Positions 2,524-18,426 of a stretch of DNA of 19,086 nt are shown piece after piece. This stretch comes from a bacterium (GTDB lineage Bacteria > Babelota > Babeliae > Babelales > JAUWHS01), in contig JBDRFY010000019.1 in the NCBI GenBank assembly GCA_043818275.1, positions 1 through 19,086 of the forward strand. Direction: 5' to 3'. The stretch's first letter is position 1. Each line of letters begins with the position of its first letter. A program made the position numbers and the translations under genes. The notes beneath the pieces were generated by a model. That model made no database searches. It saw only the letters and a list, made by a program, of their open reading frames with translations, and was not told where the DNA came from.

Positions 2524-3168
2524 ATGAAATCTGTATCTGTTTTTGGGGAAGGTTCAAATATTTTGGATGCCATAAAAAAAGCATGGGAAAAGGCTGGTCA
2601 ACCGGATAATTTTACCGTAAAAATTATTACCTTTGGTAAAAAAGGGTTTTTGGGTTTTTGGGCAAAACCTGCTGTTGTGTCATTGTTTTGTAAGCTTAAA
2701 AAAGATTATAAAAATTTAGTTTCCCCGAGAGAAATTAGAAAAGACAATAAACAAGAAGACACTAAAAAAACCGCTTACACTCAAATATTTAAAAAAGGTG
2801 TTGATGATGTCAAAAGTAGCCCAGCATCTATTTCTAAAAAATTATCTCAGGGTGAACTAGCATCCAGAAAAACAAAAGATTTATTTTGGAATGATGAATT
2901 GATCCAGGAAATTTCTCAATATTGCAAACAATTGTTTAATATTATGGAAATAGAAACCCCATTTAAAGTTGATTTTAATAAGAAGATTTTGAATATTAGT
3001 CTGAAAAATAGTGTGTTAACTTCTAAAGAAGAAGAGAAAAGTTTTTATATAAGTTTATCTCACATATTGATGCAGTTTTTAAAGAAGGATCATAAGAAAA
3101 AATTCGAAGGTTTTCATATAATTATTAATTCTCCCTTAGTAGCAAATGAATCAACAAAACAAAATTAA
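2524..3168 (+). CDS. Jag N-terminal domain protein (KhpB/EloR-like, shortened, no recognisable R3H)
   Basis: N-terminal ...ILDAIKKAWEKAG...VKII...KKGFLGF..KPAVV matches the Jag_N pattern. It lies directly upstream of mnmE, the canonical jag position. ATG at 2524 follows AAGGG. Confidence 0.75.
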   Translation: MKSVSVFGEGSNILDAIKKAWEKAGQPDNFTVKIITFGKKGFLGFWAKPAVVSLFCKLKKDYKNLVSPREIRKDNKQEDTKKTAYTQIFKKGVDDVKSSPASISKKLSQGELASRKTKDLFWNDELIQEISQYCKQLFNIMEIETPFKVDFNKKILNISLKNSVLTSKEEEKSFYISLSHILMQFLKKDHKKKFEGFHIIINSPLVANESTKQN

Positions 3169-4672
3169 TCAGTTAAATAGTGATGAAGAATCTATAATTG
3201 CCCGCTGTACTCCAATGGGAAGTGGGGCAATAGCAATTCTGCGTATTTGTGGTGTTGATGCAATTTCGATTGCAGATAAATTTTCAAAATTATCCTCAGG
3301 TAAAAAGTTATCAGATTTACCAACGCATACAATTCATCATGGTTTTGTTGTTAGTAATAATGAAACAGTAGATGAAGTTTTATTTTTGTTGATGCATGGT
3401 CCCAAAACTTTTACGGGACAGGATACTGTGGAAATTAATTGTCATAATAATCCATTTATAATTGAAAAAATTATTAACCAGGCAATTGAATCTGGTGCCA
3501 GGTTGGCTCAAAGAGGTGAATTTACCAAAAGAGCATTTTTAAATAAAAAAATTGATTTAATTCAGGCGGAGTCAATTAATGAGATTATCGGAGCGCAGAC
3601 AGAACTTGCGTTGAAAAAATCAATGTCTCAATTAAAGGGAACTTTTTCCAGTTTTTTAAAAAAAACAGAAGAAGAGCTTATTGAGCTTTTAAGTATTGTG
3701 GAAGCAAGCTTTGAGTTTTTAGAAGAAGAACAACGTGATATAAATTTGCATAATTTGATTACAACAAAAATTGATTTATTTTTGAAAAATCTGAAAAAAA
3801 TAAAAAAAGATTTCAACACACAACAGCAAATTCGAAATGGTATAAAAATAGCAATAATTGGAGAAGTAAATGTTGGTAAATCTACTTTATTTAATTCTTT
3901 GTTAAATAAAGACAGGGCAATTGTTACAGATATTGAGGGAACAACAAGAGATAGTGTTGAATCAACTTTATATAAAAAAGGAAATTTTTGGTTATTAACA
4001 GATACTGCAGGATTGAGAGAGCCATCCTTCGCTAAAGCTTCGGAGGGTCTGTCCTTTGAAGCCTTGTGCGCAAGAGGAACTAAAGATCAAATAGAAAAAG
4101 AGGGCATTAATCGCAGTTTAAAAGAAGCTGCCATAGCTGATATAGTCCTTTTTGTTTTTGATGTAACAAAGGATTTGGATCAAAAAAAGATACAGATTTA
4201 TAATGAAATAATTAACAAATATAAAGATAAAGTCATATTGGTTTTTAATAAAATTGATACCCTTCGACCTCTCGATCTTTCGATAAACTCAGGACTCGAG
4301 GCTCATTGTGATTGGAATGAATTTGAAACTGTCTTAAACCAAATGGGAAATAATAATAAATATTTTATTTCTGTTTCTGCCAAAGAAAAAAAAGGGATTT
4401 CTAATTTAGAAAAAATGATACAATGTAAAATTCAGGAAATGTTTGAAAATTTGAATTCGCCTTTTTTACTCAATCAACGGCAATTTAATTTAATAGTTCA
4501 ATTGGAGCAAATGATGAATTTGATTGTAAAAAGCATTACTGATGGGCTACAATATGAATTACTTGCTTACCAATTAAAAGAAATGCTTGAAAATTTATCT
4601 GAATTAACAGGAAAAAATGTAACCGAAAAAATTTTGGATAATATATTTAACTCTTTTTGTGTAGGTAAGTAG
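3146..4672 (+). CDS. mnmE: tRNA modification GTPase MnmE (TrmE), with two in-frame palindromic insertions
   Basis: TPMGSGAIAILR, PKTFTGQDTVEINCH, GEFTKRAFLNKKIDL, G1 GEVNVGKS, G2 GTTRD, G3 DTAG, G4 NKID, G5 SAK, C-terminal FCVGK. Confidence 0.97.
   Translation: MNQQNKINQLNSDEESIIARCTPMGSGAIAILRICGVDAISIADKFSKLSSGKKLSDLPTHTIHHGFVVSNNETVDEVLFLLMHGPKTFTGQDTVEINCHNNPFIIEKIINQAIESGARLAQRGEFTKRAFLNKKIDLIQAESINEIIGAQTELALKKSMSQLKGTFSSFLKKTEEELIELLSIVEASFEFLEEEQRDINLHNLITTKIDLFLKNLKKIKKDFNTQQQIRNGIKIAIIGEVNVGKSTLFNSLLNKDRAIVTDIEGTTRDSVESTLYKKGNFWLLTDTAGLREPSFAKASEGLSFEALCARGTKDQIEKEGINRSLKEAAIADIVLFVFDVTKDLDQKKIQIYNEIINKYKDKVILVFNKIDTLRPLDLSINSGLEAHCDWNEFETVLNQMGNNNKYFISVSAKEKKGISNLEKMIQCKIQEMFENLNSPFLLNQRQFNLIVQLEQMMNLIVKSITDGLQYELLAYQLKEMLENLSELTGKNVTEKILDNIFNSFCVGK
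4022..4078. repeat. Inverted pair of family-A palindromic elements, 57 nt / 19 aa in-frame insertion in mnmE
   Basis: tccttcgctaaagcttcggaggg (4025-4047) is followed by an inverted copy, gtcctttgaagccttgtgcgcaagagga (4051-4078). Both align to the alaS copy at 13598-13627. The insert encodes PSFAKASEGLSFEALCARG between DTAGLRE and TKDQIE. Confidence 0.8.
4260..4315 (+). repeat. Family-B palindromic element with a nested second copy, in-frame in mnmE after NKID
   Basis: cccttcgac...gctcattgtgattgg matches the alaS copy (- strand cccttcgac...gctcagggtgatcgg). An inner ctcga/tcgag stem encloses tctttcgataaactcagga. Confidence 0.7.
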
Positions 4673-4705
4673 TTAATGATTATTTAAGGGGATTGAGGGG
4701 GAGTT

Positions 4706-5767
4706 ATGAAAAAACATTTTTTATTTTTTATTTTTATAATTTTTAATCAAAACTCATTTGCATCCTTTTCTTATGTTGCATCCAAGTTTTTAACCAGTAA
4801 TGATTTTACTGATGAAGAAGGTAATGTTTCAGGCCATTATGTTTGGACAAGTTCTTCAAAAAACCCGTTTACCGAATTAATTTTATCCTGGAATGCTTTA
4901 AGGCCTGAAAGAGGCAAATTTGTTTTTTTGGTAAGTGTCAAACATAATAAATGGACGCAGTGGTATAAACTTGCAGAATGGGGAGTTAAGAGTCAGCAAA
5001 CTTTTGTTAATTCAAGAGTTCCTATTGTACACGCAAAACATGTCCGAATGGTGCTAACTCGTGGAAAAAAAAGTAGTGCTTTCAGAATTAAGGTTTTAGC
5101 TCAAAATGGAGCTGATTTAAGAAATTTAAAATCATTGTTTGTTAACACTTGTGATATGAATAAATTTGTGGAAACAAAACCTGATTTTAAAAAAATGACA
5201 ACTTACATAAAAGGTTTTCCACGTCAATCACAAATGGTTGTTGGCCATCCCAGATTTAGAGATATCTGTTCACCAACATCTTTAAGTATGATTTTGGATT
5301 ATTATTTAAATCCAAAACGTTTAACTCCAAAAGTTGGTGGATTAACTTCATTTGTTGCAAGTTTTGCGGACTTGGTCCATGACGACAGTTATCTGGATAT
5401 ATATGGAAATTGGATTTTAAATACAGCTCAGGTTTTTGATTCATCGCAAGGAAGTGTTTTTTGTCGCGCGCAAAGGCTTAATAATTTTGATGAATTATAT
5501 GAATATTTAAAAAACAAAACTCCTGTCGCGGTAAGTATTCGTGGGTCATTGCGTGGGGGTAGAAAGCCTTATGATAACGGACATTTTGTTGTCGTTATTG
5601 GATGGAGTCAAAAGAAAAAAGCTGTTATTTGTGTTGATCCTGCTTTTTCGAGCAGTAATAAAACATTAAAAGCTTATCCTGTAAAAGATTTTTTAACCGC
5701 CTGGGGAAAATCCAGAAATTTAAGCTATATTGCAATTCATAAAAACGATTTTTATAAAATAATGTAA
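4706..5767 (+). CDS. Secreted C39-like (papain-fold) cysteine peptidase family protein
   Basis: Signal peptide MKKHFLFFIFIIFNQNSFA. SQM...ICSPTSLSMIL (Gln, Cys), GHFVVVIG (His), VDPA (Asp). RBS GAGGGGGAG. Confidence 0.8.
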   Translation: MKKHFLFFIFIIFNQNSFASFSYVASKFLTSNDFTDEEGNVSGHYVWTSSSKNPFTELILSWNALRPERGKFVFLVSVKHNKWTQWYKLAEWGVKSQQTFVNSRVPIVHAKHVRMVLTRGKKSSAFRIKVLAQNGADLRNLKSLFVNTCDMNKFVETKPDFKKMTTYIKGFPRQSQMVVGHPRFRDICSPTSLSMILDYYLNPKRLTPKVGGLTSFVASFADLVHDDSYLDIYGNWILNTAQVFDSSQGSVFCRAQRLNNFDELYEYLKNKTPVAVSIRGSLRGGRKPYDNGHFVVVIGWSQKKKAVICVDPAFSSSNKTLKAYPVKDFLTAWGKSRNLSYIAIHKNDFYKIM

Positions 5768-5784
5768 TTGTTAGCGAGGTTTTT

Positions 5785-6105
5785 ATGTTAAGTGAAAAAA
5801 CTTTAGAGGTAATCAAAAAAAGATTAATCAAGATTTATAATCCTTTAAAGATATATATTTTTGGTTCTTATGCCTGGGGTAATCCAACTGAAGATAGCGA
5901 TTTGGATCTTTTGATTGTTGTTGAGGATTCAAATGAAAAAACATATAGAAGACCAATAAAGGGACATGTTGCTTTGTCTGGGATTGATACGCCAAAAGAT
6001 TTGATTATTTATACAAAGCAAGAGTTTGAGGAGAGGTCTGGAGATATAACAACTCTTTGTTATAAGGTAAAAAATGAAGGAAAAGTGATTTATGCCAAAG
6101 CATGA
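5785..6105 (+). CDS. Minimal nucleotidyltransferase (MNT) domain protein
   Basis: IFGSYAWGNPTEDSDLDLLIV is a GSx10DxD motif. Third Asp in PKDLII. C-terminal EGKVIY. Confidence 0.9.
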   Translation: MLSEKTLEVIKKRLIKIYNPLKIYIFGSYAWGNPTEDSDLDLLIVVEDSNEKTYRRPIKGHVALSGIDTPKDLIIYTKQEFEERSGDITTLCYKVKNEGKVIYAKA

Positions 6106-6496
6106 GTTATGGCTTAAGATTGCATTGATTGATTTAAAATCAGCTAAAACTCTTTTAAAATCTGAGCTTTATTCTTCAGTGATGTTTCATTGCCAACAAT
6201 CAGCGGAAAAATCTTTAAAGGGTTTTCTTGTATTTAAAAAACAAAATATTAGAAAAACACATGATTTGATTTGGCTTATGGATTTTTGCGCAAAGTTTGA
6301 TATTCAGATTAACAAGCTTAAATTGATGCTTGGCACTTTAAATCCTTTAGAAACTAAATTCAGATATCCGGATGATTTTAGTATTCCAGATGAAAAAGAA
6401 GCATTAGAGGCTATAAAATTTGCTAACAGAATTTATAATTTTGTGCTTAAAAAAATTAAAGAACCAAAAACAGGCCAAAAAAATATTTTTGATTAA
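6092..6496 (+). CDS. HEPN domain protein, partner of the MNT (putative toxin-antitoxin pair)
   Basis: [28 protein letters not shown] and RYP motifs. Overlaps the MNT gene by 14 nt. Confidence 0.9.
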
Positions 6497-6516
6497 TTGT
6501 AACTGGAGATTTTGTT

Positions 6517-9078
6517 ATGAATGAACAAAATTTTACACATGCCTTTATCCAATTGTTACAAGAAGCATTCTCATTAGCGCAACAAAATAATCATTCTGTA
6601 ATGCAGCCTATTCATATTTTGGCAGCGGCTTTGCAGGATAATTTTTGTTTGTCAGGTTTTGATGCTTTGGGGATAAATACAAATCAGTTAAGTGATTTGG
6701 TTGGTCAAGAATTATCTAAAACACCAACCATTCAGGGCGCGCAGCCAACACCAGACTATTCTTTGCAACAATTTTTATCTGAATGTGATCAAATTGCAAA
6801 AAAATTAAAGGACGAATTTGTAAGTGTTGATGTTTGTATGCTTGCATTTGCAAAAACAAATAATCTACCAACATCAATTCTGAATTTTTTCAGACAAAAT
6901 AATTTTGAATATCAAAAAGTTTTAGACTGGGTTAATTCTTTAAGACAGGGGGAAACTGTGAAAGATCAGGGCGCAGAAAATCAATATCAGGTTTTAGAAA
7001 AATATTGTCAGGATTTAACCAAATTGGCCAGAGAAGGAAAACTTGATCCTGTAATTGGTCGCGATGCTGAAATTCGCAGGGTGGTACAAATTTTATCCCG
7101 TCGAACGAAAAACAACCCGGTTCTTGTTGGGGATCCTGGTGTTGGTAAAACAGCAATTGTTGAAGGGATAGCGCAAAGAATAATAAAAGATGATGTTCCC
7201 GAAAGTTTGCGTAATCGAAGAATTTTATCCCTTGATCTTGGAGCATTAATTGCGGGAACAAAATTTCGTGGAGAGTTTGAAGAAAGATTAAAAGCGATTT
7301 TAAAAGCGATTGAAAAAGAATCACAATCCATAATTTTATTTATCGATGAACTTCATATGCTTGTTGGCGCAGGGGCAACAAATGGTGGTATGGATGCATC
7401 AAATTTATTAAAACCGGCTCTTGCCAGGGGAATTTTGCATTGTATTGGAGCGACAACTTCAGTTGAATATAAAAAATATATAGAAAAAGATGCGGCTCTT
7501 GAGCGTAGGTTTCAAAAAGTGTTGATTGAAGAACCATCAATTGAAGATACAATTTCAATTTTGCGTGGAATTAAAGAAAGATATGAATTACATCATGGAA
7601 TAAGAATTAAAGATTCTGCTTTAGTTAAAGCTGCAACGTTATCAGCTAAATTAATTCCAGATAGATTTTTACCGGACAAAGCAATTGATTTAATTGATGA
7701 AGCAGCATCCATGGTTAAAATGGCAATTGATTCAAAACCGGAAGAAATAGATAAACTTGAACGAAAAATCAGGCAACTCGAAATTGAAAAAGTGGCTCTT
7801 GAAAAAGAAAAAGATGAACAATCTAAAAAAAGATTGAAAGATTTAAGCAAAGAATTGAGTGATTTAAAAGAACAAAACCGAAAATTAACACAAAAATGGA
7901 AATCAGAACGTGAACCGTTAGAAAAAATTCAAAAATTAAAAGAAGAACGGGATCAATTAAAAATTGAATATGACAAGGCTGAACGGGAAGGCGATTTTTC
8001 AAAAGCGTCTATGATTAAATATGGAAAATTGGTTGAAGTGGAGAAAAAAATTACGCAAGAACAGGAAAAATTAAAAAAAGTTGATGGTGATCACCTGATT
8101 AAAGAAGAGGTTGATGAAAATGATATTGCCTCAGTGTTGTCCCGCTGGCTTAAGATTCCTGTTGAGAAATTAAAAGCGGATGAAAGTGAAAAACTTATCA
8201 ACATGGAAGATTATTTACATAAAAGAATTATTGATCAAAAAGAGGCGATCAAAAAAATAGCTGATACAATTCGGGTTCATCGAACTGGAATCGCTGACCC
8301 GAATAAACCAATTGGTTCATTTTTATTTTTAGGGCCAACAGGTGTTGGTAAAACAGAGGTTGCAAAAACTTTGGCTGATTATCTTTTTAATGATGAACAT
8401 CAAATGATCAGAATTGATATGTCTGAATATATGGAAAGGCACGCGGTTGCAAGATTAATTGGCGCTCCTCCTGGTTATGTTGGTTATGAAGAAGGTGGAC
8501 AATTAACAGAGCAAGTTCGCAAACATCCATACAGTGTTGTTCTTTTTGATGAAATTGAAAAAGCGCACAATGATGTTTTTAATCTATTTTTACAAATTTT
8601 GGATGAAGGAACTCTAACTGATTCGCAAGGCAGAACTGTTTCATTTAAAAATTGCATAATTATTATGACATCAAATTTGGGTTCAGATTTAATTTTGAAA
8701 GCCGGTGATCTCACGGCAAAAGTAAAAGATGAAATAAATAAATTATTGTTCAAACATTTCAGACCTGAATTTTTAAACCGGATTGATGAAATTGTTTATT
8801 TTAATTCGTTAAAAGAAAAAGATGTTGAACAAATTGCAAAAATTCAGATCGATAAGTTAATTAAGCGCATGAAAGAACAGGATATTAATCTTGAAGTTTC
8901 TGACGAGGTAACTAAAAAGTTGGCTGAACTTGGATATGATAAAGAATTTGGAGCGCGCCCATTAAAGCGAACGATTCAACATTATGTTACAAATCCTCTG
9001 GCCGTTGAAATTCTTAAAAATCATGGTAAAAAGAAATTTGTTGTGAAATTGGTAAAAAACAATCTTGTAATAGCCTAA
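6517..9078 (+). CDS. clpB: ATP-dependent disaggregase ClpB
   Basis: Two AAA+ modules ([15 protein letters not shown] and [15 protein letters not shown]), [17 protein letters not shown], a long coiled-coil middle domain, [21 protein letters not shown]. Confidence 0.97.
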
Positions 9079-9108
9079 AACAAGTAGGGTTAAACCCGAC
9101 TTATTTTT
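9079..9108. terminator. Probable bidirectional intrinsic terminator between convergent clpB and USP genes
   Basis: aagt-a-gggt / accc-g-actt stem (9082-9102), flanked by an A-rich left side and a T-rich right side. Confidence 0.6.
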
Positions 9109-10489
9109 ATTCTTCTCTGCGTTTTTTTGTTATTGGGTTATCTGGTAACTGATTAATAAATTGATTTGCAACATCTAACAAATTATCTACATTCTCTTCA
9201 TTTATTCGATCTAAATCTTCTATTGTATTTATGTTTTGCCATGGGTTAGGAATATTATATGTAAATGGCCACCAATAAGTCCAAGTAACAGGTTGAAAGA
9301 TTTTTAAATTTTCTGGAATACCTTGTGCGTTAATTAATTGTTTTAGAAAAAATACCTTATCTTCTTTTGTTTTAAAAGTTGGAAATTCATTTTTTATCGC
9401 ATTGATAAAATTTAGCATGTTTTGTCCTGTTGTTTTAGGAATTTCAATTATTTTACGTTTTCGGGTTTCGGTTTGCGTTGTTGTAGTTTTTATTTCGGGC
9501 CGTGGTTTTTCTTTAGTTGTCATTTCTACATCTCTATGTTCCATATCTGATTTTTCGTAAAAAAGAATGTAAGGCATATAAATGTATCCATCATCTTCTT
9601 TTCTGTTACCCAAGGGTGGGGAATTTTGTTCTTGTATTGTTGTATCATCAAATTTATACCATTGATTATTTCGTTTTGTGTAAGCGATGTAGTGACCCGC
9701 TTCTAAGGTTCCGCCTGATTGAGAAACAACTCCAATAAGATTGTAATTTGCATTTTGGTTTTGAATGTTATTGTCTAAATAGTCAGATAAATTTAAATTT
9801 TCTTCGAATGTTATTGAGCGTTTGTTTTTTGTGAAAGTTTGTGTTTTGGTATCATATCTAAATCGCATTAACTGAATGATTAAATATTTTGGTAGAAATG
9901 AAATTTTAGATTGTTTAAAAAAATCTTGTCCTTCTGGGGCCTCTTTTTCAAAAAACTTATTTAAATATTTAGTTAAGGTGTTGTTATTTGTGATGGGAAC
10001 AGAAAGAATTGTTGTTTGTTCTGGTATTCCTAGCCATGAAACGTTATTTTGGGATAAGTGAGTTTGCAGCGTTATATAAATTAATTTTTTAAAATCAGCT
10101 TTTAATTTATAGGTATTTTTTTCGATATCTTTATCTGTTAAATGAAATAAAAGATTAGTTAAAAGTTCATGAGCGTCTTGTTGAGTTTTTTCAGGCCAAC
10201 GAAAATTCTTTTGCATTGATTCATAAAAAGCTTTTGGTTCAAAATAATTAGTTTCTATAATTTGTTTATAAATATTAAATAATTCTAGATATTCTTGAGA
10301 AATAGAATCTTTTTTATAAAGATTAATATTGTTTTCAGCTAACTGATTAAATTTATCCAGGCTGAAGAAACATTGCAGTGTTGCATTCATAAAACATGTG
10401 TTACCCAAATTATTTAATCCAACAGCTTTATCAAGCGCATTTATATTTGTGGTCAAAAAAAATATCAAAAATAAATTTTTAAATTTCAT
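9107..10489 (-). CDS. Secreted USP-family (peptidase C19) ubiquitin-specific protease / deubiquitinase
   Basis: Signal peptide MKFKNLFLIFFLTTNINA. Cys box GLNNLGNTCFMNATLQC (C32), QQDAHELL, LPKYLIIQLMRF, His box YNLIGVVSQSG..AGHYIAY (H266), WYKFDD (D281), YILFY. Confidence 0.92.
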   Translation of the reverse strand: MKFKNLFLIFFLTTNINALDKAVGLNNLGNTCFMNATLQCFFSLDKFNQLAENNINLYKKDSISQEYLELFNIYKQIIETNYFEPKAFYESMQKNFRWPEKTQQDAHELLTNLLFHLTDKDIEKNTYKLKADFKKLIYITLQTHLSQNNVSWLGIPEQTTILSVPITNNNTLTKYLNKFFEKEAPEGQDFFKQSKISFLPKYLIIQLMRFRYDTKTQTFTKNKRSITFEENLNLSDYLDNNIQNQNANYNLIGVVSQSGGTLEAGHYIAYTKRNNQWYKFDDTTIQEQNSPPLGNRKEDDGYIYMPYILFYEKSDMEHRDVEMTTKEKPRPEIKTTTTQTETRKRKIIEIPKTTGQNMLNFINAIKNEFPTFKTKEDKVFFLKQLINAQGIPENLKIFQPVTWTYWWPFTYNIPNPWQNINTIEDLDRINEENVDNLLDVANQFINQLPDNPITKKRREE

Positions 10490-10650
10490 AACAATCCTTT
10501 TTTATGAACTGATAACAAGTATTTAGATTAAAAAATAATTATGAATTTTATCAAATAATTATAAATTTTCTTTTTTAAACACTTTATTGATATCATTTTT
10601 TTTCATAAACTATGCGAAAAAGTTTAAAATTTTTAAAATTTAGGAATTTG

Positions 10651-11172
10651 ATGAAAAAAATGTTTGTTTTATTTTTTTTCTTAACATTTTCTTTGTTTAT
10701 TAATTGTAACTGTATGGAAGATGATGAAGAAATATTAATGTTTCAAGAAGGACATAATCTTACTGAACAAGAATTATTAAAAATAAAAAGGCAATTTGAT
10801 TGCATTCCTGGTAGTAGTTTCATTTTGAATGGTAATAGTCCATTTTTATTGGGTTATTTATGGCTTTACCCGTCAGTTGTTAAAACTAATAATCAATTAG
10901 GCAATACATTGTTGCACATGGCAGCATTTTTTGGTGAAGTTTATTGCGCTTATCTTTGTTTGTATTGGAATGCGGATATAAATAGTCAAAATTGTTTTAA
11001 GCAAACTCCTTTGCATTTGGCTGTTTTGACTAAGGATTTCGATATGATTAAGTTTTTATTGGAAAAGCGCGCAAAATTTGATATTCAGGATACTTCTGGT
11101 AAAACGGCAAAAGATCTGGCAAATGATTCAAATAATCAAAAAATAAGTCAATTATTTAAAAGATACGAATGA
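10651..11172 (+). CDS. Ankyrin-repeat protein with signal peptide
   Basis: GNTLLHMAA, ADINSQNCFKQTPLHLAV, AKFDIQDTSGKTAKDLA. Hydrophobic N-terminus MKKMFVLFFFLTFSLF suggests a start at 10651 rather than 10612. Confidence 0.88.
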   Translation: MKKMFVLFFFLTFSLFINCNCMEDDEEILMFQEGHNLTEQELLKIKRQFDCIPGSSFILNGNSPFLLGYLWLYPSVVKTNNQLGNTLLHMAAFFGEVYCAYLCLYWNADINSQNCFKQTPLHLAVLTKDFDMIKFLLEKRAKFDIQDTSGKTAKDLANDSNNQKISQLFKRYE

Positions 11173-11198
11173 ATTTTAAGGTGTTAGTTTTTAATATC

Positions 11199-11228
11199 TT
11201 GAAGATTATTCAAACTTTTTCATATAAT
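11199..11228 (+). promoter_or_regulatory. Possible sigma70 promoter for the second ankyrin gene
   Basis: TTGAAG, 18 nt, TATAAT. The AT-rich context lowers specificity. Confidence 0.35.
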
Positions 11229-11271
11229 AAAAATGTAATAGTTTTATTTTGTAATTTTAGACGGGGGATTT

Positions 11272-11838
11272 ATGATGATTTATTTTAGAAGAATTCTTTT
11301 TTGTATCTCGTTTTTTTCTTTATCATTTTTTAATGTTTTTGCAGATGATGTTGAGGATTTTAGAAGCGCTGTTAACGATTTAAACGTTGATCAAGTACGA
11401 TCAATTTTAAAAACTAAAAAAGACAATTCATCTGACGATGATTTTTTTGAGTTTGTTAACCATCCAGATAAAAACGGTAATACCGTTTTGCATTTGCTTG
11501 CAGATTTAGCGATTGAAAAAGAAGGTTGGAAATGGAATTCTGATAGAAATGATGAAGAAGAAGTTATTGGATTTGAAAAAACAGTTGAACCAAAGCCAGA
11601 AAGTTTAAAAAAAATCAATAAAATAATAATTATTTTATTGGAAAATGATGCAAGTAAATATGCTGAAAATAATAATGAAGAAACACCAGAAAATATTATT
11701 GAAACTCCTTTTCTCCCCGCGTCTAGGGAATATAAAGAGATTCAAAGCCTTTTAAAAATTTCCAGATTGGAAATTTTGAGGGATTTGTCAATAGGTTATT
11801 TTTATGATTTATGGAAATATTTTTTTCCAGAAAAATAA
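11272..11838 (+). CDS. Secreted protein with degenerate ankyrin repeat(s)
   Basis: Signal peptide ending ...NVFA. FVNHPDKNGNTVLHLLAD and IIILLENDASKYAENNNEETP. RBS GGGGA. Confidence 0.7.
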   Translation: MMIYFRRILFCISFFSLSFFNVFADDVEDFRSAVNDLNVDQVRSILKTKKDNSSDDDFFEFVNHPDKNGNTVLHLLADLAIEKEGWKWNSDRNDEEEVIGFEKTVEPKPESLKKINKIIIILLENDASKYAENNNEETPENIIETPFLPASREYKEIQSLLKISRLEILRDLSIGYFYDLWKYFFPEK

Positions 11839-12327
11839 TATTTCTTGTTTTGCGGTTTGCGGAGAATCTGATCCGTGAACCGCATTTTTTTCTGTATTTG
11901 TTCCAAAAATTCTTCGTAGTGTATTTTCTTTGGCTTTTTGAGGATTTGTGTCTCCCATTAGTTGGTGCCATTGTTCAATTCCATCTTCCTTTTGCAAAAT
12001 CATTACAATAATTGGACCTAAAGACATGAAATTTACAAGATCATCGAAAAAAGATTTGTCTTTGTGTATTGCATAAAAGTTTTGAGCTTTTTCTTCAGTT
12101 AATTTTAATTTTTTAATTTTAATTATTTCAAAGCCTTCATTTTCAATTCGATCGATTATTTTACCAGTGTATTTGGCTTCAACAGCATCAGGTTTGATCA
12201 TTGCCAACGTTTGTTCAATTTTTTTATCTGAATTTTTTTTAGAAAATATTTTATTGGTCAGATAGATATCTGTTATTAATAAAAGAATGCCTAAGATAAC
12301 TATAGAAAATAAAATTTTTGATTTCAT
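11809..12327 (-). CDS. ndk: Nucleoside diphosphate kinase with an N-terminal hydrophobic anchor/signal
   Basis: EQTLAMIKPDAV, FYAIHKDKSFF, GPIIVMIL, LMGDTNP, TLR, NAVHGSDS (catalytic His). About 37-aa N-terminal extension containing ILFSIVILGILLLIT. Confidence 0.93.
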   Translation of the reverse strand: MKSKILFSIVILGILLLITDIYLTNKIFSKKNSDKKIEQTLAMIKPDAVEAKYTGKIIDRIENEGFEIIKIKKLKLTEEKAQNFYAIHKDKSFFDDLVNFMSLGPIIVMILQKEDGIEQWHQLMGDTNPQKAKENTLRRIFGTNTEKNAVHGSDSPQTAKQEILFFWKKIFP

Positions 12328-12334
12328 TTTTAAT

Positions 12335-14956
12335 CTATTTTTTTAGCCAATTTATAATTTGTGTTTTAAGATTTTTTATTTTAATTCCGCCGCCCTGAAG
12401 TAAGTTGTCGCTTCCGCCTCCTTTTAATTGCAATTCATCTCTTAAAAATTTAACGAATTCTTTAAACGCTATCTTTTTTTCAACTGATTTGCTTAACCAG
12501 GCAACAAAATTAATTTGATCTTTTCCTGAAGTCAGGAAAAACAAACATTCTTTTTCTTTTTCAATATCAAGACAAATTTGTTTGAGCTCTATGTTGTTTA
12601 AATCTTCAAGTTCCAGGTATAAAAATGGAATGCCGTTTATTTCTTCAATTGAATTTATCCAAACAGGAATTTTTGATGAAATTATTTGCGCTTTTAAGTT
12701 TTTAATTTGTTTTTCTGTTTCGCGTAGATTGTCTTCCAATTTTTCAACTGCTGAAAGTATATTTTCAGATTTTACTTTAAATTTTTCTGATAAATTTTTT
12801 ATAGAATTAAAATCTTGCTGAAAAAGTTTTACTGCTTGAGGGCCAGTAACTCCTGTAATTCGTCTTACACCTGAAGCAAGAGCGGTATCGCTTAAAATTT
12901 TAAAACAACCAATTTGTCCAGTTCGTTTTAAGTGCGTTCCGCCGCAAAGTTCTGTTGAAAAATCTGGAATTTGAACAACGCGAACTTTTTCAGGATTATA
13001 TTTTTCTCCAAAAAAAGCCATTGCTCCAGCTTCTTTTGCTTTTTGTAAAGTTGTCCAAAATATTTTTAATTCCAGGTCTTCCTGAATTTTGTCGTTTACG
13101 ATTTTTTCGATTTGTTCAATTTCTTGCGGGGTTAATGCTTTGTTGTGAGTTAAATCAAATCTGAAGATTTTATCATCAACAAAAGATCCTGCTTGTTTTA
13201 TGTGTTTTCCTAAAATTTGATGCAATGCGGCTTGAAGCATATGCGTGGCGGTGTGATTTTTTGCCGTATTTATTCTTGAATAATAATCAACAACGCTATG
13301 CGCGATATTACCAACTTTAATTTTTGAATCTTTGCTTTGTTTTATTTTTAACGCGATTATTTTGTTGTTTTTATACAACTCTAATATTTTATAATTTTTG
13401 TCATTAACTGTTATCCAGCCAATATCACTTGCCTGTCCTCCGGATTCAACATAAAATGGAGATTCAGCTGTTATGACCCATAAAAAATCACCATCTATTT
13501 GAGTGAAAATAATTTTACTTTTATTTTCAAGTTCATCATAACCGGTAAATTTTGTTTCAAGATTTTCAGGAATATTTTTAATAATTGTTTTATCTTGCTT
13601 GTCCGCCGAAGCCTTGGCGGAGGAGGATTGTTGTTTTTTCATTTCAGATTCAAAACCTTTCATATCAACATCAAAACTATTTTCCTTTGCAATTACGGTT
13701 GTTAATTCTGGTGGAAAACCATAAGTATCATAAAGTTTAAAAATTTGTTCTCCAGATAATGTTTTTAAATTTAATTTTTTGTTTTCGTTGATATATTTTT
13801 CTAAAATAACTTGGCCTTGAAGTAAGTTTTCTGAAAAGCGTTCAATCTCATTTGTTAAAGTATCAAAAATTAATTGTTCACTTGCTTTTAATTCCGGATA
13901 AATCGGTCCCATTATTTTTATAAGTTCAATGCAAAGAGCTGGGAATAATTTTTGATTATCAGATAATTTTTGAGCAAAAAGAGCGGCGCGTCTTATAATT
14001 TTTCTTAAAACATATCCTCTTCATTCATTTGATGGTATACACCCATCTGCGATTAAAAAAGATGAAGAACGAATATGATCAGCAAGAACATTAAAAGCTG
14101 CTTTCTCTTTTTCGTCCCGATCACCCTGAGCATTCTGCGAAGCAGAATTTGTCGAAGGGGAGTAATTTTTCTTAGTTAATTCTTCTATTTTTTTAATTAA
14201 ATCTTGGAAAATATCTATTTCAAAAAGAGTTTGTTTTTCTTGGACAACCATGCAAAGGCGTTCAAAGCCCATTCCGGTATCAACTCCTGTTTGTTTTAAT
14301 GGTTTTAATTCGCCATCTTGTTGCCTATCGTATTGCATGAAAACAAGATTCCAAATTTCAACAAATCTTTTACAGTCGCATGAGGGATCGCAATTTTTGT
14401 TTTTACATTTTTTATCTACGCCGAAATCCATGTGAATTTCTGTGCATGGTCCACAAGGTCCTGTGTCGCCCATTTGCCAGAAGTTTTCTTTTTCACCAAG
14501 GCGGTAAATTTTGCTTTGGGGTAAACCTATTTTTTTATTCCATATTTCATAAGATTCATCATCTGTTGTAAAAACAGAAACAACTAATTTTTCAGCCGGT
14601 AGTTTTATTTCTTTTGTTAGAAATTCCCAGGCATATTTTATTGCTTCTTCTTTGAAATAATCCCCGAATGAAAAATTTCCCATCATTTCAAAAAATGTTA
14701 GATGTTTATTTGTAAAACCAACAGCCTCCAGATCATTATGTTTTCCACCGGCGCGCACGCATTTTTGAATAGAGCATGCTTTGTCATAAGATCTTTTTTC
14801 TTTTCCCAAGAAAACATCTTTAAATTGATTCATGCCGGCATTGGCAAAAAGCAGAGTTGGATCATTTGCTGGAATTAAACTTGAACTTGGAACAATGGTA
14901 TGATTGTTTTTTTTAAAGAAATTTAAAAATTTTTCTCTAATTTGAAAAGAATTCAT
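12335..14956 (-). CDS. alaS: Alanyl-tRNA synthetase, one reading frame interrupted by a single in-frame TGA (14021-14023)
   Basis: [105 protein letters not shown]. The two ORF-track pieces are in the same frame, joined by 36 sense codons. Confidence 0.95.
13598..13627. repeat. Family-A palindromic element in-frame in alaS ([10 protein letters not shown])
   Basis: cttgtccgccgaagccttggcggaggagga, with a tccgcc/ggcgga stem. GC-rich island in AT-rich coding DNA that aligns with both mnmE family-A copies. Confidence 0.8.
14117..14160 (-). repeat. Family-B palindromic element in-frame in alaS ([15 protein letters not shown])
   Basis: The + strand reads ccgatcaccctgagc-attctgc-gaa-gcagaat-ttgtcgaagggg: outer ccct/aggg ends with a perfect 7-bp inner hairpin (14132-14148). 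Confidence 0.8.
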
Positions 14957-15045: not shown

Positions 15046-16051
15046 TTAGACTAAAAATTGAAGGTATTTAATAATTGTTATAATAATTATTGAAAAAAAT
15101 GCGGCGACAAGATCGTCAAACATTATTCCAAAACCTGAATCATATCTTTCTTCGATTTTATTTATGAAAGGAAATTTGGTTATATCGAAAAACCTGAATA
15201 AAATAAATGCGAAAACGTAGTAGGCTATAGTTCTTGGTGTGAAAAATAGGATAAGCGCCATTGCGCAAATTTCATCTATTACCACATATTTGGGGGTCGC
15301 TTATTTTGTCAACCTTTGATATTTTTTCAGCAGTCAGTATTCCCGCGATAAATAATATGACCACAAAAATGATTTTGGGATAAATTGGGGTTAGTTCTGT
15401 GAAAAAAAGAATTATGGTTGTTACTAAACTTGCAAATGTTCCGGGTGCGACTGGAAAATAGCCTATATAACTGCAGGTTGAGACAAACTCAAAAAAATCA
15501 TCATTTTTAATCAGATATATTATTCCTGATGAAATTGTAATCATAACGGTTATCGTAAATGAGGCAATTGCTATGCCAAAAGAAACATTAGACAGAAACT
15601 GATTTTTAAAAAATGTCTCAATTAAAACATAAAAAAGGATTAGATAAATTGATATAAACTGAATTGTTGTTTTTATTTTTCCTATATGCAGAGTATCAAT
15701 TTGCTTTCCAGTCAATATTGAATGAACTCTAAGACCTGTTATTAAAAATTCTCTAAAAATTATTATCAAAACTGGAAATAAAGGAATCAGTTTTAATACA
15801 TAGAAGGTTAAAAAAACAGAGGAAAGTAAAATTTTATCTGCCAGGGGGTCCAGGAAAGTTCCCAACATGGAAACAGATTTATACTTTCGCGCAAGTTTAC
15901 CATCATAAAAATCAGTCATAGCAGCTATTGTTATTATAATTAATGCCCCAATTGTATAAAAACCTCCAAGCAGCATTGTGATTACAAAGATTGGGGATAA
16001 TATAATCCGAAGAGTTGTAATTAAATTCGGTAAGGTTATTATTTTTGACAT
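15046..16051 (-). CDS. pgsA: Fused PgsA (CDP-DAG:glycerol-3-P phosphatidyltransferase) and PgpA (phosphatidylglycerophosphatase A), with an apparent 1-nt frameshift in a C5 run
   Basis: PgsA: LPNLITTLRI, TDFYDGKLAR, GTFLDPLADK, REFLITGLR, GKIKTTIQ. In the same frame follows the PgpA motif GYFPVAPGTFASL. Removing one C at 15292-15296 gives DPKYVVIDE, continuing to FILFRFFDITK and GIMFDDLVA. Confidence 0.88.
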
Positions 16052-18367: not shown

Positions 18368-18426
18368 AATAAAAAAAGATCTGTATATTAATCGGTTCAG
18401 TATTAATATATAGATCTTTTTTTATT
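18368..18426. terminator. Long inverted repeat / bidirectional terminator
   Basis: 25-bp arms aataaaaaaagatctgtatattaat (18368-18392) and attaatatatagatctttttttatt (18402-18426), one G.U pair, 9-nt loop. Confidence 0.75.

Follow-up and report, generated by a model that had tools for sequence, protein, structure and literature searches.

Two families of hairpin repeats inserted in frame in mnmE and alaS of a Dependentiae bacterium and the GIY-YIG nuclease genes linked to them

The window analyzed here, a stretch of 19,086 nt (JBDRFY010000019.1), is contig C19 of a 1.33-Mb assembly with 31% GC content and 94% completeness. The closest named matches of the MnmE protein encoded in the window were from Babeliales/Dependentiae, and the bacterium is a host-dependent member of the Dependentiae (genome G000). 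Its genes mnmE and alaS contain four GC-rich islands that belong to two families of hairpin repeats, A and B, and a separate small GIY-YIG nuclease gene elsewhere in the genome is linked to each family. A sister genome of the same genus, G001, served as orthologue reference; about 1.1 of its roughly 1.2 Mb was compared. The features of the two genes are as follows:

3146..4672, + strand: mnmE, tRNA modification GTPase, 508 aa (Pfam TrmE_N, MMR_HSR1, MnmE_helical)
4022..4047, + strand: family A with tRNA-type arms CCATCC/GGAGGG, first half of a tail-to-tail dimer (profile, E 2e-8)
4048..4078, - strand: degenerate family A, second half of the dimer (read from the sequence)
4260..4315, + strand: degenerate family B, right after the G4 NKxD motif (loose B pattern)
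12335..14956, - strand: alaS, alanyl-tRNA synthetase, 873 codons when read through (Pfam)
13598..13627, - strand: family A, 30 nt, in the linker after the aminoacylation module (A pattern, comparison to G001)
14021..14023, - strand: in-frame TGA at an invariant Gly codon (PSNE-G-RGY), outside any element (orthologue alignment)
14117..14160, - strand: family B, 43-44 nt, in a helix-to-helix loop of AlaS (B pattern)
14132..14148, - strand: inner hairpin of the alaS B copy, 17 nt, arms TTCTGC/GCAGAA, three-base loop

A first-pass annotation of the window had described these islands as palindromic elements of two families inserted without breaking the frame. This was confirmed: the four islands are real, in-frame copies of two families that occur throughout the genome. 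They lie at the coordinates given there or a few bases off, their GC content is 0.50-0.67 compared to 0.30-0.31 in the host genes, and the reading frame is intact across all of them. The description as hairpin-forming was supported by covariation across copies but was weak copy by copy. Only the island at 13598-13627 folded clearly better than shuffled sequences (z -2.7 and -1.9), while 4260-4315 folded no better than shuffles (z +0.9 and +0.3). The A copy at 4048-4078 was detected neither by the strict A pattern nor by the profile, and a generic repeat finder did not place the islands among the top families of the window. Different reading frames of family B in mnmE and alaS had been reported; this applies to the 5' arm but not to the 3' arm, for which mnmE and alaS use one and the same frame (AHCDW versus AQGDR). 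That the structure of the DNA is conserved and not the peptide was borne out by family A, which is present within open reading frames (ORFs) in all six frame/strand phases.

The A dimer at 4022-4078 of mnmE comprises 57 nt or 19 residues, and this is exactly the net gain compared to the G001 orthologue. The distance between the DTAG motif and the catalytic glutamate is 27 residues in the window protein and 8 residues in 114 of 119 MnmE homologues; of the other five, four were unmatched and one was a pattern slip. In an alignment to E. coli MnmE (9hip), the 19 residues lie between the equivalents of R275 and E282, which are R291 and E317 here. Both E. coli residues are part of switch II, E282 is catalytic and is stabilized by R275, and substitution of either residue lowers or abolishes tRNA modification (PMC3695501). 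The B copy at 4260-4315 harbors a second B-like unit in its loop, at about 4269-4301. The loop behind NKxD is variable among homologues and is 51 nt longer here than in G001. The window MnmE retains the conserved residue in each of the 101 alignment columns with at least 95% conservation among 99 homologues, mnmG is intact in the genome, and two of the three element copies in mnmE have diverged from the consensus. This argues, if indirectly, for mnmE being a working gene despite the insert. Logan contigs from runs of two studies, one of which may be the source sample, matched positions 4162-4456 (295 nt) and 4130-4299 with zero differences. Since the 295-nt match bridges the B copy of mnmE without a difference, this copy is not a misassembly. 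B-like peptides were also seen in the MnmE homologues P0004, P0055, and P0069 of other Dependentiae, in two of the three cases in the same loop behind NKxD. On the level of peptides, this suggests that the loop is a tolerant site that was struck independently in MnmE of the Dependentiae.

The A site of alaS spans 27 residues compared to 22-27 residues in 25 AlaS orthologues, and the net change in length to G001 is 0. Therefore, this A copy replaced a conserved QSGKK stretch and did not lengthen the protein. The B site shows a net gain of 36 nt (12 residues) over G001 and spans 57 residues compared to 42-45 residues in 28 orthologues. Its inner hairpin at 14132-14148 shares the same or near-identical arms with full-length A copies at C62:45224, C78:7147, and C18:34703, and would represent an A copy that collapsed between its two TTCG repeats.

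The alaS ORF is split by the in-frame TGA, which lies about 95 nt from the nearest island and had been overlooked in the first-pass annotation. None of the sequencing contigs listed covers this TGA or bridges either of the alaS islands, and no empty allele was seen among them. The TGA is most likely an assembly error, since most other split genes of this genome result from a shift by one base, frequently in a homopolymer, or from a single stop. Recoding of TGA was considered and rejected: TGA ends 140 of 960 long ORFs, merely 5 of them have a long in-frame continuation, and this share is below that of TAA (44/670).

The view that the inserts are not tolerated and that mnmE and alaS are impaired or decaying in this lineage would find some support in the stop at an invariant glycine of AlaS and in the separation of the equivalents of R275 and E282, whose substitution impairs tRNA modification in E. 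coli (PMC3695501). However, MnmE has retained its conserved residues in spite of the decay of two of its copies and mnmG is intact; no other full-length alaS was found in the genome; and nine of the 11 genes that are split in comparison to G001, several of them essential, have no A or B island within 200 nt of the break, which suggests assembly errors. We therefore consider such a decay very improbable. The two remaining split genes are alaS and a phosphonopyruvate decarboxylase gene (C89:10218-11584), which is broken by a tail-to-tail B pair with about 170 nt between the copies. One of the ten split genes other than the C89 gene may be a natural tandem pair. The essential genes among the nine are topA, valS, dnaX, and polA, which were named by eye from the orthologue sequence, except for valS.

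We scanned the whole genome for both repeats. The family A pattern gave 105 matches compared to 0 in each of five shuffled genomes, and the loose family B pattern gave 150 matches compared to 1-5 in three shuffles; 131 of the B matches passed a stricter filter. Merging of both sets resulted in 215 islands, so that further copies exist as the earlier reading had required. Of these, 63 are located in 49 long ORFs (120 codons or more), including the two islands of the C89 gene, and 152 lie outside. The lack of intergenic copies noted in the first-pass annotation thus holds for the window by profile search, but not for the genome; the window profiles were built from genome copies and missed the two most decayed copies of the window. 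The density is 0.056 islands per kb in coding DNA and 0.775 per kb outside, a difference of about 14-fold.

Comparison of the 63 coding islands to G001 allowed 40 to be anchored on both sides, 11 were not anchorable, and 12 had no match, some of which may be misses due to the incomplete coverage of G001. At 34 of the 40 anchored sites, the gene is longer than its homologue, and at six it is equal or shorter. Element-like sequence was found at the same place of the G001 homologue in five cases, one of them a paralogue. The islands are thus insertions of a mobile repeat that are specific for the lineage and not loops common to orthologues, and they are of the kind of the Rickettsia palindromic elements (RPEs). 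Insertion into mnmE and alaS was confirmed, but the view that the system adds new loops to essential proteins is overstated as a description of its output: coding copies are about 14-fold sparser, one gene was broken, and the A copy in alaS adds no length.

According to the G001 orthologues, the genes with islands include gltX, leuS, valS, pheT, pth, tilS, and tsaB, and furthermore uvrA, uvrC, mutL, priA, glmS, murB, and lpxB. An ORF of 660 aa (C21:4353-5584) contains four islands and a fifth loose copy, uvrC (C38:4582-5135) contains three islands, and a B pair in uvrA adds 68 residues. When the flanks of the 152 non-coding islands were tested for broken genes, three matches were obtained, all beside tRNA genes, and these are taken to be spurious. 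The flank test missed the C89 gene, which was found by the search for split genes. Insertions in coding DNA likely pass a purifying filter, and some break the gene or are purged.

The B unit is a bulged hairpin of 26-27 nt that consists, head first, of CCG-N-TC (71/91 copies), RYCCTGAG, a variable loop, and TCGAAGG. Among 21 B pairs with the heads facing inward, the spacer measures 95-110 nt in 13 pairs (AT-rich and related to each other) and 34-37 nt in six, and two pairs enclose a GIY-YIG gene. The doublets without a gene have inverted ends and share the orientation of the B pair that flanks the nuclease gene. In REPIN systems, hairpin doublets without a gene also occur at fixed spacing, and the B doublets are alike in this respect.

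The A unit starts with a 6-nt arm, followed by TWCGY, a loop, and RCTWC; the complementary arm and then a CARG tail complete it. Of 60 copies, 33 have a length of 30 nt and 16 a length of 41-42 nt. The sequence of the 6-bp outer stem varies while pairing stays, with C-G, T-A, and A-T as alternatives at the same positions around the TTCG...CTTC core. In a search without a pairing requirement, arm pairing was 0.815 compared to 0.581 in shuffles, and none of 2000 shuffles reached this value; in G001 it was 0.771 compared to 0.570 (related copies are not independent in this test).

Seventeen A copies lie inside B. Thirteen of them are at a T^CAG junction and all have 30 or 42 nt (a narrower pattern gave 14 at this junction); the remaining four form the loop of a B subfamily. 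Comparison of the 13 filled B sites to 38 empty ones revealed neither loss nor duplication of the target, and a test for a miniature inverted-repeat transposable element was accordingly negative for target-site duplication at these sites. A is inserted directly before CAG or CCA. It was also found inside two other repeat families of the genome, C (five copies, 29-30 nt) and D (six copies, 30-41 nt). A and B are thus also linked to each other, in that B is a target of A and what looks like a collapsed A forms the loop of the B copy in alaS.

A further target of A is the 3' end of tRNA and tmRNA genes. A starts there in 18 of 46 genes by a strict rule and in 27 of 46 by a relaxed rule; there, the CCA is provided by the first bases of A and pairs with its far arm. 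Two tmRNA genes with slightly different tag peptides (C34 and C78) each have a start of family A behind them, and the 4% contamination of the assembly may be the source of this pair. The pairing of A with the CCA in tRNA precursor trailers (23/46) would be compatible with hairpins that act as functional RNA elements, or that are removed or bypassed in the RNA so that the proteins have normal length, and a 19-residue insert in switch II is indeed hard to accommodate. But by far most coding copies lie in open frames, and they occur in both orientations, as expected if they are translated. Moreover, the distribution within the order is patchy (three or more copies of A in 17 and of B in 15 of 41 genomes), and an Rfam search of the window returned tRNA-Gly alone, with no match for the islands. 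Hence, we give hardly any credence to an explanation at the RNA level.

A layout of hairpin, nuclease gene, and hairpin has been described for the Ssn/NTS system (Chenal et al. 2025, PMC11893778). We found seven GIY-YIG matches in the genome: UvrC, two genes flanked by B, and four genes of 80 residues behind tRNAs. The B-type gene (e.g., C75:30799-31074) encodes about 90 residues and is UPF0213-like, the A-type gene (e.g., C50:67836-68078) is SLX1-like, and UPF0213 proteins and SLX1 are also the respective best matches in the PDB. None of the six small proteins was above a family cut-off in NCBIfam. Stand-alone bacterial GIY-YIG domains have been grouped with Slx1, and the passages of that work consulted here link no repeat to them (PMC1564403).

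Of 19 B-type genes in the Babelota (two of them from G000), 16 have B at a distance of up to 300 nt and 11 have the full inverted cassette. Of ten A-type genes, nine have a tRNA upstream, nine have A upstream, and none has B. The linkage was also seen outside this phylum. B-type loci with full flanks retrieved from GTDB (Proteobacteria, Nitrospira, Dehalococcoidia) have B in 19 of 32 cases and the full cassette in 9 of 32; A was found upstream of 0 of 34 and there was no tRNA. Conversely, A-type loci from metagenomes have A upstream in 46 of 55 and a tRNA upstream in 36 of 55 cases, and B in 1 of 48. We also compared 41 genomes of the order, in which at least three copies define a genome as rich in a repeat and related genomes are not independent. 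The A-type gene is present in 15 of 17 A-rich genomes compared to 9 of 24 others, the B-type gene in 10 of 15 B-rich genomes compared to 5 of 26 others, and the crossed pairings are weaker. Thus, A is tied to the SLX1-like gene and B to the UPF0213-like gene in a partner-specific manner and beyond one phylum. This also answers the search for repeat-flanked mobility genes that had been proposed: GIY-YIG genes are paired with A and B.

Five further GIY-YIG genes of the Babelota form a separate supported clade with GTCAT-type repeats and no B; by their sequence pattern, we call them Ssn-like. In the tree, they nest on a long branch among the B-type rows, and the A-type rows lie outside. There is no Ssn-like gene among the seven GIY-YIG matches of G000, despite the presence of family C, of which 18 TGTC-tagged repeats of the CGTC type were counted (e.g., C75:6319-6474). 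One genome of the Gammaproteobacteria has at least eight near-identical B-type genes (loci L231, L233, L235, L237, L239-L241, and L247) that lack a B arranged as in the cassette; this may point to a further mobile form.

The first-pass annotation had named RAYT enzymes as agents that spread REP sequences. A Y1/RAYT or other transposase acting in trans would find some support in six Y1_Tnp matches in the genome, in the other strand of A, which shows a 5' tetranucleotide tag before the hairpin like repetitive extragenic palindromic (REP) sequences, and in A copies nested in the repeats that flank one Y1 gene. However, by eye the flanks of the six genes are other repeat families, no B copy was seen beside them, and A occurs near them solely nested inside these other repeats. 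No transposase has been tied to CGTC-type repeats in the text of PMC3733652, and the GIY-YIG linkage is specific and crosses phyla. RAYT as partner was therefore not upheld, and we regard spreading by a transposase in trans as improbable. The RAYT-like Y1 genes at C59:329-778, C60:13439-13888, C76:3807-4256, and C36:2799-3260 lie between repeats of two further abundant palindromic families; together with A, these families also build long nested composites.

We propose, with a probability of roughly 0.6, that the islands are in-frame copies of two hairpin repeats, each spread by its linked GIY-YIG nuclease. By analogy to SsnA, each nuclease would bind its own hairpin as single-stranded DNA and cut beside it, and host repair would then copy the hairpin into a new site. 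We know of no joining activity for these GIY-YIG proteins. Because the lengths of the A unit are divisible by three and most frames of both units are open (the commonest units have no stop in four to five of the six frames), some insertions into genes would survive while others would break the gene or be purged. The coding copies would then likely be rare insertions that survived because the frame was kept, with loops that are probably translated and tolerated but not adaptive.

SsnA cuts a few bases upstream of NTS, and what was demonstrated for it is cutting of its repeat, not movement of it (PMC11893778). This weighs against our proposal, as do several results of the present analysis. Thirteen of the 32 GTDB B-type loci have no B repeat. 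In 5 of 15 B-rich and 2 of 17 A-rich genomes, the partner was not found with one query. The tree does not join the B-type proteins in a single resolved clade, and the Ssn-like rows lie among them. Net gains at B sites in genes are not equal to the element lengths, so that boundaries are not fixable there; the six anchored sites mentioned above are not longer than the orthologue; and A lengths that preserve the frame are mildly favored in genes only (16/23 versus 44/82), a small bias.

Some of these points would also fit selfish repeats that the GIY-YIG proteins merely recognize and that spread by host recombination, gene conversion, or template switching. SsnA acts on transformation by controlling incoming DNA, and its role in mobility is hypothesized alone (PMC11893778); the net lengths at B sites are ragged, and A has no target duplication. 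But the junction and the unit lengths of A are fixed across B, families C and D, and tRNA ends, and the B doublets are shaped like the cassette. Both point to a boundary that is set by an enzyme, and recognition without mobilization appears unlikely to us.

As a possible but doubtful extension of the nuclease proposal, minimal single-domain GIY-YIG nucleases outside the described Ssn family might mobilize a broad class of REP-like hairpins across phyla, one of them might drive A to home precisely, without duplication and with the frame preserved, as a unit of 30 or 42 nt, to tRNA CCA ends and other hairpins, and a working MnmE might thereby have come to tolerate a 19-residue loop in its catalytic switch II.

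In-frame palindromes in genes are known from Rickettsia (RPE; PMC10969869). Like RPEs (Ogata 2000, 2002, as summarized in PMC10969869 and PMC3733652), the palindromes described here are in-frame insertions in housekeeping genes that are unrelated to each other, the bacterium depends on a host, and other copies are intergenic; genes for tRNA synthetases, tRNA modification, and uvr functions are among the hosts; and the copies are absent from orthologues. They differ from RPEs in a length of 26-45 nt compared to about 150 bp for RPEs as first reported, probably in their sequences, in the lack of a single conserved peptide, and in the candidate enzymes beside the repeats.

The resemblance of B to Ssn/NTS lies in a small single-domain GIY-YIG gene between inverted, oriented hairpins with an unpaired 5' head, and in hairpins that have expanded throughout genomes of symbionts. 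In contrast to Ssn, A lies only upstream of its gene, together with a tRNA, and has no inverted flanking pair; the head of B is CCG-N-TC, its stem is bulged, and the best PDB matches of its partner are UPF0213 proteins. The parts of PMC11893778 consulted here describe no counterpart of A with its tRNA-linked SLX1-like partner, and NTS copies are rarely in genes (2%) compared to 63 of 215 islands here. The published SRM pattern recovered none of the 150 B matches and had no match genome-wide, and it was insensitive here, as it also missed family C and four of five Ssn-like loci; it worked on an NTS control and gave matches in the flanking DNA at 2 of the 32 B-type loci from GTDB.

REP sequences within genes have been reported for synthetase and uvr genes (PMC3733652). 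CGTC-tagged REPs (Di Nocera et al. 2013, PMC3733652) likewise combine a tag with a stem-loop, form dimers, have intragenic copies, and lack a linked transposase. Family C (TGTC-ATCCTGAA...TTCAGGAT-CCA) fits their description and resembles the stem of B. We took a CGTC, TGTC, or CCTC tag directly 5' of a stem of 8-9 bp and a CCA tail as their hallmark, following the description in the text of that paper. B has neither a CGTC/TGTC tag nor a CCA tail (TGTC in 1 of 91 heads, compared to 18 of 18 counted copies of family C), and A is unrelated in sequence. Since B lacks the CGTC tag and does not match the (here insensitive) SRM pattern, it works like an SRM but is no shown member. REP/RAYT systems are similar in having an enzyme gene between inverted hairpins; they differ in that the central gene found here encodes a GIY-YIG nuclease and not an HUH Y1 transposase, and there is no GTAG tag.

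Our literature search found no paper on families A, B, or their partners, most subscription papers being outside this search. Among the 14 supplements of PMC11893778, the 12 that were searched (all but files 13 and 14; the figures were outside the search) do not contain the core words of A and B. Their peptides are absent from the intragenic table of PMC3733652 in the text available and from four of its supplements (Figure 2 and file S5 were outside the search). The in-frame phenomenon itself is already known from Rickettsia; the repeat-nuclease partners were not found in print.

Besides mnmE and alaS, the window contains a pair of nucleotidyltransferase and HEPN genes (MNT-HEPN toxin-antitoxin type) at 5785-6496 (+ strand), upstream of a clpB-like ORF. 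A eukaryote-like ubiquitin carboxyl-terminal hydrolase is encoded at 9107-10489 (- strand) and an ankyrin-repeat protein at 10612-11172 (+ strand); both are of a kind typical of host-interacting genes. A gene at 15046-16051 (- strand) is cut by a frameshift near 15281 and is a single ORF of 348 residues in the sister genome; by eye, its product has CDP-alcohol phosphatidyltransferase-like and PgpA-like parts. An AT-rich inverted repeat of 25 bp with 96% complementarity (18368-18426) lies behind an SPFH-like gene and is likely a terminator unrelated to families A and B.

The multiplication of RPE-like and CGTC-type palindromes is still to be explained, as no transposase was found for them (PMC3733652), and mobility of the Ssn cassette is a hypothesis only (PMC11893778). 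The genome studied here adds two further repeat-nuclease pairs, and the filled and empty sites of A fix its junction to the base, so that a simple assay with oligonucleotides could address the question of multiplication. Should the proteins prove to cut their own hairpins, they would be new site-specific single-strand nucleases of 80-90 residues. With the mnmE allele, nature itself offers a test of whether a dimerization-activated GTPase accepts a loop of 19 residues in its switch II.

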